This document shows positions 38,051-49,380 of a stretch of 64,000 bases of DNA, piece after piece (positions within the stretch are counted from its first letter, which is position 1; the number at the start of each line of letters is the position of its first letter). A program made the position numbers and the translations under genes. The DNA is from Pseudogymnoascus verrucosus (taxonomy: Eukaryota). A model generated the notes under the pieces. The model was given only the letters and a program-made list of their open reading frames with translations. It did not search any database and was not told the DNA's origin. The stretch is from NCBI GenBank assembly GCA_001662655.1, contig KV460211.1. The stretch is one strand, 5' to 3'.

Positions 38051-39717
38051 ATGCATTCAAATTTGTTCCAGGCAACCCAAGCGGCGAGCTTGCTCCTCAC
38101 GGCTGGCTCCTTGCTCCCTATCGCAGCCGCAAAGACCGCGGCGGAATGGCGTGAACTGTCCATTTACCAGGTCTTGACCGACCGATTTGCAACAACTGAT
38201 GGCTCTTCCCCAAGTTGTGGGATCACAGACTACTGCGGTGGTACATGGAAAGGGCTGGAGAATAAGCTTGATTACATCCAGGGAATGGGGTTTGAGGCAG
38301 TTTGGATCTCTCCAGTGTAACGTCTTTTGTATCCAGCCAAATAACAGTTGACTGACACTGTATTAGCGTTCATAACATCGACGGGAGTACTCCTGCCGGC
38401 TATGCGTATCATGGGTGTGCGTTTTACTTCTAACCCGCACTCTCTATCTATGAGGGTATTCTAACATTGAAGATAGATTGGGCTGATAACCCTTACACGC
38501 TCAACGACCACTTTGGCACTACAGATGATCTTAAGAGCCTTTCAGATGCTCTCCATGGGCGTGGCATGTCACTGATGGTCGACGTTGTAATCAATCACTT
38601 CGGATCAATCCAGGATTCAGGCTCGGTAGACTACAGTGCATACCCTTCGCCGTTCGATGCCGCGTCAGCCTTCCATTCACCTTGCGCAATTGACTATACG
38701 AGCCAAACGTCCATCGAGAATTGCTGGGTTGTGACTTCGCCTGCCCCTTCTCTACCTGATGTCAATTCTGAAGACGCATCCGTCTTCGGAGCTCTAGTGG
38801 ATAGTGTCGTTGACCTTGTTAGCAACTATAGCATTGACGGCATCCGTCTTGATACGGCCAAGCATGTCCCAAAAGAATACCTCACTCAGTTCCAGGAGGC
38901 AGTCGGTGTCTTTGTGACAGGAGAGGCCTTGGATGGGGACCCAGCATATGTCTCGGGATATCAAGGCCCACTCAACAGCTTGATCAATTACCCACTCTGG
39001 TACGATCTCATCAGATCTTTTATGGGTGGGAGCTTCGATGGCCTCGCAGCAATGATTAGCACTGAAGCTACATCTTTCTCCGACGTTAACGTCCTGACGA
39101 ACTTCCTCGATAACCACGACCAACCTCGCATTGCGAGCCAGTCCGGCGACGATGAGGTCAAAGACAAAAACGCGGTGACATTCCTGATGTTCACTTCTGG
39201 GATTCCTATGGTCTACTACGGCTTTGAGCAGCGATTCACCGGTGCAGCTGACCCAAACAACCGCGAAACGCTCTGGACCAGCGGTTACAACACCGACACG
39301 ACGCTGTACAAGTATATTACACAACTACACGAGATCAGGGACATCGCGTCGAATGTTACTGACAAGGCAACCTATTTCTCCTCCAATGTGGCAGTCCTTG
39401 GCACTTCGAACGAATATATGGCCCTGCAGCGTGGGCCTGCCGTGGTGGTGGTGTCAAATGTCGGTGCCGCGGGCACCAGTGACAGCTTCAGCGTCACAGG
39501 GTCGACGTTTTCTTCTGGAGACTCAATTGTTGATCTCCTAGACTGTACTGCGGCAACTGTTGGCGACTCTGGCGCATTCACAAGCCCATCGGCCAATGGG
39601 GAAGCTAGAGTAAGTGATCATAACACCCCTGCCCCTTATGAATCGAGACATTAGATGGCTGACTTTCCCGCGTAGATCTGGGTACAAACGGAGAACAAGG
39701 GCAGCTTCTGTCCTTGA
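38051..39717 (+). CDS. amyA: Secreted alpha-amylase, GH13 (Taka-amylase type), no CBM20
   Basis: Signal peptide; SIYQVLTDRFA, YCGGTWKG, GYAYHGYW, MVDVVINH, GIRLDTAKHV (nucleophile), TGEALDG (acid/base), FLDNHD. Exons 38051-38316, 38367-38416, 38477-39609, 39676-39717. Confidence 0.95.
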
Positions 39718-40088
39718 GGTTATGTGGTTGAAGAGAATTTATAGTTCGAATATATGTTGAGGCGCTTCAAACTATTTGGTCGGGTAAGACCTGGGTCAGC
39801 GGCTCATCTCAGTAGCCTTGCAAGAAACTATCGAGCCTCTGGTAGTATTGTGAGCACGGTATAGGCTAGAATACTTAGGCAAAAAATATATAAATGCCGA
39901 ATTTGCTAGAATTTGCTCTTATACCAGACGCTCAGGAACCAGCTTCCCCTCGAGGCAAACGTGTAGCCACTGAGCTGGCTTCCCGCTTGCCTGAAGGGGG
40001 GGGACTGGTCCCTAAGGCTCCAGCCACTTCCATAAGCGTCCGGACGAACTATATGTATCAGCTCAAGCTGCTGCCCTTTAATTCCAAA

Positions 40089-40363
40089 GGTCTGATGGTC
40101 TAGTGGTAAGGCACCGCTTCTCAACTTCCGATTTTGGGCCTTCGGCACTCAAACCCCTTGGATACTTGCGGATTTGCGGATGAGAAATCAGCGAGGGAGA
40201 GAGTATGGGTGGTTGGTTGGTTGGTTGGCAGGTGGGTGAGAGGCTAGGGTTTCCTTCCGCCGTTCTTCTTTTTTGTGATCTGGTCAGTTTTGGGCCTAAT
40301 GAGGGATTCTTGGCCAACGGGAAATCTCCTAAAAGATCTCCAGTTCAATCCTGGATCAGACCA
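40089..40363 (+). tRNA. tRNA-like gene interrupted by ~190 nt (pseudo-tRNA or long-intron tRNA); anticodon ambiguous (TCA or CTC)
   Basis: Acceptor stem GGTCTGA (40089-40095)/TCAGACC (40356-40362) + A; A-box TGGTCTAGTGG; T-arm TCCAG-TTCAATC-CTGGA; T-rich Pol III-type terminator directly downstream. Confidence 0.7.
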
Positions 40364-40866
40364 TTATTTTTTGGCTTTTTTTATATATGTTTTTAGAACG
40401 CTTTCTGAACGTTGGTGAGGGGGCGGCTGCGTGCAATGTGTTCATCTAGGAGTTGAACCCGAGTCCTACGTGCACTTTCATAAAAATTCCAAAACACTCA
40501 AGCTTAGACTCGAGCTGCAAGAGTGCCACATAAATCCTAAGTATATGTAGTGATTGCGTGCAAGGGATAGAGCTTTCATCTACCATATCGTGATAGTAGT
40601 CTATTTCTCAAACATAGCAATGGAGACATCTGTGGCATGGCCAAGGGTTATTGTGTGCTGAGGCAGTCACATAGGTATCATCAGGGATAACTCAGTAGCG
40701 TCAATAAATTTAGAGCCTCTGAAGGGCCAGTATTCAATAATTTCTAGTATCTACATAGATATAGTAACCGTAAACGCGCCATGGCGTCCTTTGTGCGAGG
40801 CTTCTTTATGGTCGGAAGCCGTCTACTCATATCCAAGATACCCTTTATCCTCCCTCGGCTGCCATA

Positions 40867-46963: not shown

Positions 46964-47410
46964 ATTACGAACAGCGAGTACGATGCCAGAAAGAAAGAGA
47001 TCTTCAGCCATCATTCCGTCTTCATGGATTAGCATGAGTTAGGGGTATGCCTCGGCTCGCTTATATAGGCCACTTTTGTGATTGCTTGTTTATGGGATCA
47101 GCATAATGCCGAGTAGGGCTTCGGAAGGATGTCGCCTCCACTTACGTCCGTAAGTCTACACTCTCATACTTTAAAAATCACGTTCAAGCCCTATGACGAG
47201 GGTGGAGGTGAATGTTTCACGCCCTACGGCCCGCGTGCTCTCCTCTCCTTTCTCCTTGCTCCACTTCGCTCGTGGGTGCGGATCATCACCATTCCCCATC
47301 GTCACTCCGCACAACCCCCTCCCCTTATCGGACCGTCACGCCAGTCTCCAATTTGTGTCTATCATGGCATCTAACGTCGTTTCAAACTGATCAACCTGTT
47401 TGCGGCCTTC

Positions 47411-47580
47411 ATTCAGTAGATAATGCGCTCTCAAGATTTTTATTCCAGTGCAGCGCCGTGATCGACATCTTTCTACCCTCCGGTCTGGTGTCATTTATTC
47501 AGTAAATGCATTCTCAAGATTTTTATTTCAGTGCAACGCCGTGATCGACATTTTTCTACCCTCCGGCCCGGTGTCATTTC
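47411..47580. repeat. ~82 bp tandem duplication in the glucoamylase promoter
   Basis: tctcaagatttttatt(c/t)cagtgca(g/a)cgccgtgatcgacat(c/t)tttctaccctccgg...ggtgtcattt occurs twice. Confidence 0.9.
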
Positions 47581-47791
47581 TGTTAGATTACTCCGTGCCT
47601 CGTGTTTCTATCATGCTTTTGTCGTCATCACAAAAAAAGAGCGACGATGACAATCAGCACCGTAATGGCCTACAAACTACAAATAGTCTGCATGGACTTT
47701 ATACAGTCCCATCAAGTAAATCCTCAGGAAACCAACACTCGTTCTCTTCCCGCCAGATTTGAATACAACGGATCTTACTTTATTTCTCAAA

Positions 47792-49380
47792 ATGTTCCTC
47801 AAGACTGTCATTGCCGTCGAGTTCCTCGCCAGCTCGGTATTTGCGACACCGGCGCTTCGTCACCGCTTTAAGAGACAGTCCGACTCTGATGTCGATAGCT
47901 TCATCGCGTCTGAAGGGCCTATTGCCTACAAAGGAGTCCTTAGTAACATAGGCTCCGCTGGGGCTGGTGCTTCTGGGGCTTCCGCTGGAATTGTGGTTGC
48001 ATCCCCTTCTAAGACCGATCCGGATTGTGAGTCTTTTCCTACGAGTTCTCCGCAGTGGAGGAGTATCATATCACCATTAGCTATTAGGTTCCTATTACTA
48101 ACTAACCCCTCCTCACAGATTTCTACACCTGGACCCGCGACTCAGCCCTAACCTTCACCGCCCTAATCGAGCGCCTCATCGCCGGCGACACCACCCTCGA
48201 ACCCACAATCCAATCCTACATCACCGCCCAAGCAGCCCTCCAATCCGTCTCCAACCCCTCCGGCGACCTCTCCAACGGCCTCGGCCTCGCCGAACCAAAA
48301 TTCAACGTCGACATGAGTCCCTTCACCGAAGCCTGGGGACGCCCGCAGCGCGACGGGCCCGCACTCCGCGCATCGGCTCTTATCACTTACGGCAATTACC
48401 TGATAGCGAAGGACAAGAAGGACTTGGCGCTTTCGAACATCTGGCCGGTTGTTCGGAATGATTTGGCATATGTGGCGCAGTACTGGAATCAAACTGGCTT
48501 TGATCTCTGGGAAGAAGTGCAGGGGTCTTCGTTTTTCACAATTGCAGCTCAGCATAAATCTCTAGTCCAGGGTGATGCATTCGCCACCGCCCTCGGCCAA
48601 TCTTGCGAAAACTGCGCATCCCAAGCTCCACAAATCCTCTGTTTCCTCCAAAGCTTCTGGAACGGAGAAGCCATCATCTCCAACCTCGGAACGAGCGGCC
48701 GGACCGGGTTGGACGCCAACTCCCTCCTCGCCAACATCCTCACCTTCGACCCCGCCGCACCATGCGACGACGCGACGTTCCAGCCCTGCTCCTCCCGCGC
48801 TCTAGCAAACCACAAGAAGGTGGTTGATTCCTTCCGCTCGGTTTACGGGATTAACAGCGCCAACGCCGCTGGGTCCGCTGCGGCTATTGGGAGGTATGCG
48901 GAGGATGTGTATCAAGGCGGAAACCCATGGTATCTCTGCACCCTTGCAGCGGCAGAGCTGCTCTATGATGCTCTATACCAGTGGGACACCACCGGCACCC
49001 TCGCTATAGACGAGACCTCCCTCCCCTTCTTCAAAGACCTCGATTCCACCGCCGCCGTAGGGACCTACTCCGCCAACTCAACCGAATACACATCTCTCAC
49101 TGCCGCGGTGAAGACGTACGCTGATGGCTTCGTGGCGATTGTGCAGAAGTATACACCCACCGATGGATCTCTCGCCGAGCAGTTTGGGAGGGATGATGGC
49201 GCGCCGCTGTCGGCGGTGGATCTTACGTGGTCTTATGCTTCGTTTTTGACGGCGATAGATAGAAGGGGTGGTGCGGTGCCGCCGTCTTGGGGGGAGAGTG
49301 GGGGGAATCAGGTGCCGACGAGTTGTAGTGGAGGGTCGGCTGCGGGGAGTTACGCTACGCCTCCTGCTATTGCGTGGTGA
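47792..49380 (+). CDS. glaA: Secreted glucoamylase, GH15, no CBM20
   Basis: Signal/propeptide ending [20 protein letters not shown] (intron 48027-48118), [47 protein letters not shown]; stops after a short linker (YATPPAIAW). Confidence 0.95.

Follow-up and report, generated by a model that had tools for sequence, protein, structure and literature searches.

What is a cellobiose dehydrogenase (CDH) doing among enzymes that degrade starch? The question is raised by positions 38051-49380 of the window, a 64,000-nucleotide stretch of contig KV460211.1 in the Pseudogymnoascus verrucosus assembly GCA_001662655.1 (G000:C6:124001-188000 in our numbering of this genome of 30.2 Mb and 151 contigs), where four spliced gene models without internal stops encode a GH13 alpha-amylase, an AA13 starch-active lytic polysaccharide monooxygenase (LPMO), a class II CDH, and a GH15 glucoamylase. 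We consider it probable (roughly 60%, judging from sequence comparisons) that this CDH is a duplicate that was reassigned from the cellulose-degrading to the starch-degrading system, and that it is the redox partner of the neighboring AA13. The support for assigning the CDH to starch degradation goes beyond what the cluster alone would provide, but is indirect; it consists of i) a sister lineage of CDHs bearing the carbohydrate-binding module (CBM) CBM20; ii) a mirror cluster elsewhere in the genome, in which a CBM1-bearing CDH lies with AA9 LPMOs and a GH6 gene; and iii) an enrichment of CGGN8CGG sites upstream of the clustered genes. For these three reasons we favor recruitment to starch, as a first-pass annotation of the window had proposed, but the substrate residues of the enzyme are ordinary and lend that proposal no help.

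Four starch-related genes in one cluster

The amylase contains the motifs DVVINH, RLDTAKH, TGEAL, and FLDNHD, which we take to be the conserved regions with the catalytic Asp, Glu, and Asp, and the glucoamylase contains DLWEEV and LAEQF, presumably with the two catalytic Glu. His19 (the mature His1), His109, and Tyr242 are present in the clustered AA13, whose only Pfam match is the related PF03067, and which matches the solved Aspergillus oryzae AA13 4OPB with an E value of 1.8e-126. The CDH matches PF16010 (E 7.9e-45), PF00732, and PF05199; it has the heme ligands Met110 and His214, a CxxC motif (YKCNRC) at 165, the FAD motif GGGAGG at 272, and the catalytic pair His763/Asn810, and is 100% identical across 834 aa to the public protein P0252, labelled P. 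verrucosus. Intact spliced models, family scans, and solved-structure matches thus bear out the four consecutive starch-degrading and oxidative enzymes of the first-pass annotation, and its account of the cdh gene as divergent from the glucoamylase gene and tandem to aa13 also holds, the former two sharing one intergenic region (Table 1) and cdh, which has the same orientation as aa13, lying 1691 bp upstream of it. An N-terminal hydrophobic stretch in 4/4 enzymes, with no later membrane-like window (by hydropathy only), is consistent with secretion, and all four are apparently secreted. Family scans found no CBM on any of the four, and a search past the cdh stop found no CBM20 remnant.

The GH13-GH15 portion of the cluster is ordinary, since such pairs recur at G000:C5:484600-490300 and C76:99600-105700, with CBM20 on all four genes. 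Fungal amylase-glucoamylase pairs and AA13-amylase neighbors are comparable to the present cluster, but none includes a CDH, whether at C5, at C76, or among metagenome loci. The Aspergillus amyR-agdA-amyA cluster and the AmyR/COL-26 regulons resemble it in the clustering of amylolytic genes and in their CGGN8(C/A)GG sites, but the cluster described here includes an LPMO and a flavocytochrome. The first-pass annotation knew of no described cluster of this composition; our search of the full-text literature (titles and the starts of abstracts, with few subscription journals) likewise found none, nor any CDH-CBM20 or Pseudogymnoascus AA13.

CBM20-bearing sisters of the clustered CDH

The second-best match to one of the CDH exons was P0002 (VE03_03484), a protein of 988 aa with the architecture cytochrome-flavin-linker-CBM20 and a CBM_20 Pfam match of E 1.1e-33; a second CDH-CBM20, P0256 (V491_04962), falls in the same sequence cluster. 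The window CDH is 85% identical to P0002 and 87% to P0256; these two are paralogues rather than orthologues because both strains also possess a clustered CBM-less copy; for P0002 orthology was rejected on strain content and on the tree. In a quick tree of 49 flavin domains (SH-aLRT, a Shimodaira-Hasegawa-like approximate likelihood ratio support, and no bootstrap), six clustered and two CBM20-bearing rows form a single clade (SH-aLRT 100) whose sister is the CBM1-bearing P0008 (SH-aLRT 100), all placed inside the Leotiomycete CDHs; the CDH on contig C26 of the same genome falls outside.

A search with the junction region revealed no further CDH-CBM20 fusion in the best 120 of 562 matches (8000 scored candidates). 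A third fusion, P0459, was found in the best 150 representatives of 1.84 billion proteins; in its 169-aa frame, the final 49 residues of a CDH (90% identical) are joined by a short linker to a CBM20 (69%). The frame looks like a gene called without splicing, and this would speak for a real CDH-CBM20 junction. An annotation artefact in P0002 is unlikely, two strains and the P0459 frame sharing the architecture as judged from the proteins. Altogether CBM20 occurs on 3/303 collected proteins with a flavin-domain match. The same collection also includes P0400, a protein of 2740 aa in which an esterase-like region is followed by roughly twelve CBM20-like modules in tandem.

The CBM20 of the CDHs shares 73-78% identity with 10 Pseudogymnoascus AA13 modules, compared with 63-68% for 15 GH15 modules and 56-73% for 10 GH13 modules; derivation from an AA13 gene is therefore favored by similarity, but the tree leaves it unsettled (support 82). 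The clustered AA13s are a clade (99) that groups with the AA13-CBM20 genes of the genus (91), and their C-termini are linker stubs. A simple history would be that cdh lay upstream of an AA13-CBM20 gene, that one descendant gained the CBM20, and that the clustered AA13 lost its own.

A mirror cluster for cellulose

The genome has at least three CDH-like flavin domains (on C6, C26, and C21), at least two AA13s, at least five GH15 genes, and at least six GH13-like loci; its seven CBM20 matches lie on four GH15s, two GH13s, and the second AA13. The C26 CDH has a C-terminal CBM1 and belongs to a cluster of about 12 kb (G000:C26:119007-131200; L105, L155, L156) composed of the CDH-CBM1, a divergent AA9 (+), an AA9 (-), a CBM1-GH6 (+), and an AA9 (-). 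Each full flavocytochrome CDH therefore adjoins one class of LPMO, the CBM1 form AA9s and the CBM-less form an AA13, an internal parallel within one genome. With 3 CDH genes and 9 starch loci in a genome of 30.2 Mb, the chance of a CDH gene falling 5 kb or less from a starch locus is about 0.9%, a rough figure calculated after the fact.

About 2.8 kb from the AA13-CBM20 paralogue (G000:C38:84700-89913) lies a GH7 gene in divergent orientation. Three further CDH-cytochrome domains lie away from any CDH flavin domain (G000:C42:265522-266058, C23:68062-68526, and C1:542043-542608).

AmyR-type sites upstream of the clustered genes

The AmyR site is given as CGGN8(C/A)GG in a passage of PMC8180590, and AmyR-type sites are reported in an excerpt of PMC5007996 upstream of A. 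nidulans AA13 genes. The three upstream regions of the cluster (3631 bp) contain 8 CGGN8CGG (Table 1), compared with a shuffle mean of 1.13, and 0/300 shuffles reach 8; none of 10 other spacers is enriched, the best being N12 with 3 sites, a number reached in 29/300 shuffles. The excess is local to these regions: the whole window has 22 sites where 30 are expected, and the genome 11393 in 30.17 Mb (0.38 per kb). Within 1 kb upstream, there are 16 CGGN8CGG in 12 starch genes vs 7 in 21 AA9/GH7 genes (one-sided p 0.003), where three of the starch promoters come from the cluster itself, a GH13-like locus on C83 was left out, and the 21 controls have estimated starts and are those loci, a subset of the AA9/GH7 found, whose match begins near the domain start. 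Per 1-kb promoter the clustered cdh has 3 sites, and the C26 cdh and the C21 gene have 0; by a rougher start estimate the C26 cdh would have one, at -989. The block holding the cdh sites (46686-46970) aligns at 80% or better in the distant run X23, as does a site-free block, the alignment being one of blocks and not of the CGG triplets.

Tandem duplications are also present in these promoters: 75 nt x2 (91%) before the glucoamylase gene at 47422-47579, and 57 nt x2 (84%) before aa13 at 42439-42552.

CDH class and residues

The CDH belongs on the class II side (839 bits to 4QI6 and 828 bits to 4QI7 vs 360 bits to class I 1KDG). Its best matches in both sequence and fold, at about 50% identity, are Neurospora crassa CDH IIA (4QI7) and M. 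thermophilum CDH (4QI6), with which it shares the cytochrome-linker-flavin layout, the heme ligands, the catalytic pair, and the mapped substrate residues; it differs from them in lacking CBM1, in its starch-gene neighbors, in having a CBM20-bearing sister, and in an 8-residue insertion and the replacements P576A, I294M, and Ala368Ser. The C-terminal CBM1 of class IIA is absent, the stop following the flavin domain; by the scheme excerpted from PMC5847212 a CDH without CBM1 is formally IIB.

We compared 13 clustered and 2 CBM20-bearing rows with 78 other full-length CDHs, using M. thermophilum CDH numbering counted by hand from a pairwise alignment. All 15 rows retain C291, N292, W295, M309, T599, R601, E603, Y619, R698, N700, H701, and N748, and equivalents of the heme-docking Met309 and Arg698, as well as the heme ligands, are kept in 13/13 clustered copies. 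The roles of T599 and E603 are assumed by us. Those of most other mapped residues follow a portion of PMC4507011. Tyr549 is lost in the clustered and CBM20-bearing rows, and likewise in 27/78 others. P576A (window residue 623), I294M (332), and Ala368Ser (numbered in the window enzyme) occur in 15/15 clustered and CBM20-bearing rows and in 0/78 others; we regard them as candidates only, and see no clear sequence sign of a new specificity. Replacement of Cys291 by Tyr lowers maltose efficiency 25-fold according to an excerpt of PMC13518614, and the clustered CDH retains this Cys.

Other differences do not qualify as starch adaptations: L290E was rejected because E290 occurs in 19/78 other CDHs, and the 8-residue insertion with two extra cysteines after W295 was rejected because the CBM1-bearing P0008 has it as well. 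A structure model of the clustered CDH reached a mean pLDDT (predicted local distance difference test) of 76 with a 42-row alignment and 32 from the single sequence; since the active-site loops (residues 329-368 and 753-767) remain below 50 in the 42-row model, it is uninformative as to specificity. The first-pass annotation had looked to phylogeny and the active site for signs of recruitment; the clade shared with CBM20-bearing CDHs is such a sign, but the substrate residues are of the ordinary cellobiose type.

Conservation of the linkage within the genus

The cdh and AA13 genes have adjacent locus tags or accessions in at least 11/14 named CDH records, or 10/13 without P0252, a possible source record, in a count covering the listed 15 of 18 CDH and 15 of 27 AA13 members. 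In run X23, which has almost none of the sampled words in common with this genome, a 37-kb contig preserves the whole order, with the SDR (short-chain dehydrogenase/reductase) gene, GH13, CDH, and the right flank, and with AA13 and patches of GH15 connected through same-depth joints; a second X23 contig of 25 kb matches the CDH at about 82%. In run X22, AA13 and CDH are together with the beginning of GH15 and the right flank on a contig of 42.7 kb, and a separate contig of 3.2 kb has GH13. Runs X6 and X20 yielded short metagenome-like contigs only. For one strain the sole CDH listed is a 132-aa fragment (V496_01936) whose tag is distant from that of the AA13 (V496_06266), and in another strain the CDH measures 624 aa; broken assemblies or gene loss may account for both.

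Also in X23, GH15 aligns at 80% merely in patches and cdh throughout, and the glucoamylase seems to be diverging faster.

Other features of the locus

The cluster is flanked by the SDR gene and a septin-like gene, and no regulator or alpha-glucosidase was seen adjoining the four genes. Two frames of at least 120 aa lie between cluster genes (42001-42384 and 46625-47032). The GC content at third codon positions is 0.46 for cdh, 0.57-0.65 for the other three cluster genes, and 0.69-0.87 for four flanking exons. A doubtful tRNA-like element at 40089-40363 was called by ARAGORN with introns allowed as tRNA-Pro(tgg) with a 190-nt intron containing a short simple repeat; no tRNA was called in default mode, and the copies in X22 and X23 are about 150 nt shorter. 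Frames at about 1400-5950 of the window (-) match SGNH/GDSL and FG-GAP repeats, and probably belong to a single large secreted protein.

Table 1. Genes, domains, and predicted AmyR-type sites of the cluster (window positions)
Feature	Position	Strand	Remarks
Predicted CGGN8CGG	37851..37864	-	about 200 bp upstream of amylase
GH13 alpha-amylase	38051..39717	+	496 aa, 3 introns, no CBM20; PF00128+PF09260
AA13 starch-active LPMO	40867..41740	-	266 aa, 1 intron, no CBM20, C-terminal short linker stub
Four predicted CGGN8CGG upstream of aa13	42216..42854		at 42216, 42409, 42650, 42841
Class II CDH (AA8 cytochrome + AA3_1 flavin domain)	43432..46438	-	834 aa, 10 introns, no CBM
CDH cytochrome (CDH-cyt) domain exons	45579..46292	-	domain match at G000:C6:169579-170292
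Divergent intergenic region, cdh / glucoamylase	46439..47791		1353 bp
Predicted AmyR-type CGGN8CGG	46764..46777	+	about 330 bp upstream of cdh start, about 1 kb upstream of glucoamylase start
Two overlapping predicted CGGN8CGG (one tandem 11-bp repeat)	46939..46963	-	about 500 bp upstream of cdh, 830 bp of glucoamylase
GH15 glucoamylase	47792..49380	+	498 aa, 1 intron, no CBM20; PF00723 E 1e-121

Evidence against recruitment and alternative explanations

Several observations weigh against a CDH recruited to starch. At the equivalents of W295, N292, T599, R601, E603, Y619, and N700 the clustered CDH is an ordinary class II enzyme; Cys291 is also present in 76/78 other CDHs, the cysteine loop is shared with a CBM1-bearing enzyme, and a passage of PMC5007996 describes maltodextrins as poor CDH substrates. 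The clustered CDH is itself without CBM20, as is every CDH of this genome (seven CBM20 matches, 0 on a CDH), and the CBM20-bearing paralogue does not adjoin the listed AA13-CBM20 of the same strain (VE03_03484 vs VE03_06159). The alternative AmyR site, CGGN8AGG, shows no enrichment in starch promoters (4 in 12, vs 10 in 21 cellulolytic promoters, and 0 before the clustered cdh); pooling both forms gives a p of 0.039, with 2 sites for the C26 cdh vs 3 for the clustered cdh; and the three cdh sites, though all nearer cdh, lie in a region common to the glucoamylase gene and two of them overlap. In N. crassa, cdh-2 goes up on deletion of the starch regulator col-26, according to an excerpt of PMC5435353, opposite to what is proposed here. 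As to linkage, which the first-pass annotation had made a mark of recruitment, it is conserved within the genus, by adjacent tags and in the X22 and X23 contigs, but the flanking housekeeping genes are kept in the same congeners; synteny within the genus is therefore unspecific, and the linkage amounts to microsynteny of the usual kind. No such linkage was found beyond the genus: among 75 metagenome AA13 loci (30 of at least 10 kb, some near-duplicates) a CDH flavin domain occurs in 0/75 and GH15 in 0/75, a GH13 neighbor in 5, and a free cytochrome in 1. In Botrytis cinerea B05.10 the nearest CDH tag is BCIN_15g and the AA13 tag BCIN_06g.

The metagenome locus with the free cytochrome, L064, is from an unrelated fungus and consists of an AA13-CBM20 gene (1864-2916) followed by a free AA8 cytochrome gene (5187-5756; Pfam E 3e-19).

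These observations could be read as the chance landing of an ordinary cellobiose-oxidizing CDH between starch genes, in which case the CGGN8CGG sites would serve the glucoamylase, and the CBM20 form would have resulted from accidental fusion with an adjacent AA13-CBM20 gene. Such a passenger would be expected to have ordinary substrate residues, linkage confined to one genus whose flanks are conserved too, a CBM20 form limited to two named strains and one further frame, and a CBM20 nearest to AA13-type modules, all as found; yet we think it unlikely, because the clustered CDH has lost the CBM1 carried by most of its relatives (53/78, by the pattern of the tail), the sites are closer to cdh than to the glucoamylase gene, the CBM20 form is intact in two strains with a diverged third sequence, the other CDH of the genome is sorted with AA9s, and the placement itself has the low chance estimated above. 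Alternatively, the CDH might have another job in the starch response, making aldonic acids or hydrogen peroxide or reducing quinones or iron, for example to withhold sugar from competitors, and AA13 would be reduced by other means. This would account just as well for the cluster, the CGGN8CGG sites, and the paralogue with CBM20; on starch, the AA13s of A. nidulans are secreted together with AA3_2 and AA7 enzymes (an excerpt of PMC5007996), and the genome has three further cytochrome-domain loci. We nevertheless hold it to be improbable too: 13/13 clustered copies retain both an intact cytochrome domain and the heme-docking residues, whereas class I-III CDHs often lose the cytochrome domain (a passage of PMC6509819), and the parallel with the AA9 cluster points toward pairing with an LPMO.

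A possible CDH-AA13 system

We thus return to a starch-recruited CDH as the probable redox partner of AA13. An activator of the AmyR/COL-26 type would turn on all four genes together in response to starch products; amylase and glucoamylase would yield malto-oligosaccharides and glucose; the CDH flavin domain would oxidize the reducing end of these products, probably slowly; and electrons would pass by way of the CDH heme to the AA13 copper. Class II CDHs do oxidize malto-oligosaccharides, with lower efficiency (a passage of PMC5847212), and AA13 takes electrons from CDH in vitro (the relevant part of the review PMC5094447). An oxidase side reaction of the CDH, described for cellulose in an excerpt of PMC8035211, could be a source of hydrogen peroxide, and slow turnover might suffice if mere priming is needed. 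A self-fuelling loop of this kind is at most plausible. Since all four enzymes lack CBM20 and paralogues elsewhere carry it, the cluster enzymes may act on soluble starch or glycogen, not on granules.

We wish to stress that a stronger version is possible but has the odds against it, namely that the lineage is a CDH-derived malto-oligosaccharide dehydrogenase, its specificity changed by P576A, I294M, and Ala368Ser, which would serve starch LPMOs in vivo as their dedicated source of electrons, would exist in CBM-less clustered and CDH-CBM20 forms, and would make the cellulose and starch clusters parallel LPMO-plus-CDH systems. If true, a maltose- or starch-adapted flavocytochrome would be of use to starch processing and biosensor work. 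CDH-CBM20 proteins would escape the large survey of GMC (glucose-methanol-choline) oxidoreductases in PMC6509819, in which, according to the portion consulted here, sequences with other major domains were filtered out.

The A. oryzae CBM-less AA13 (4OPB) resembles the clustered AA13 as a whole-domain match with equivalents of His1, His91, and Tyr224 and no CBM20, but the clustered AA13 has a candidate redox partner as its next gene; a CBM-less AA13 was inactive, and a missing partner was one guess, in an excerpt of PMC4338556. The relevant passages of PMC5007996 and PMC4338556 leave open the natural reductant of starch-active AA13 LPMOs. The locus described here gives a specific candidate CDH-AA13 pair, together with controls from the same genus, namely the paralogue with CBM20 and, in the cellulose cluster, the CDH that bears CBM1.

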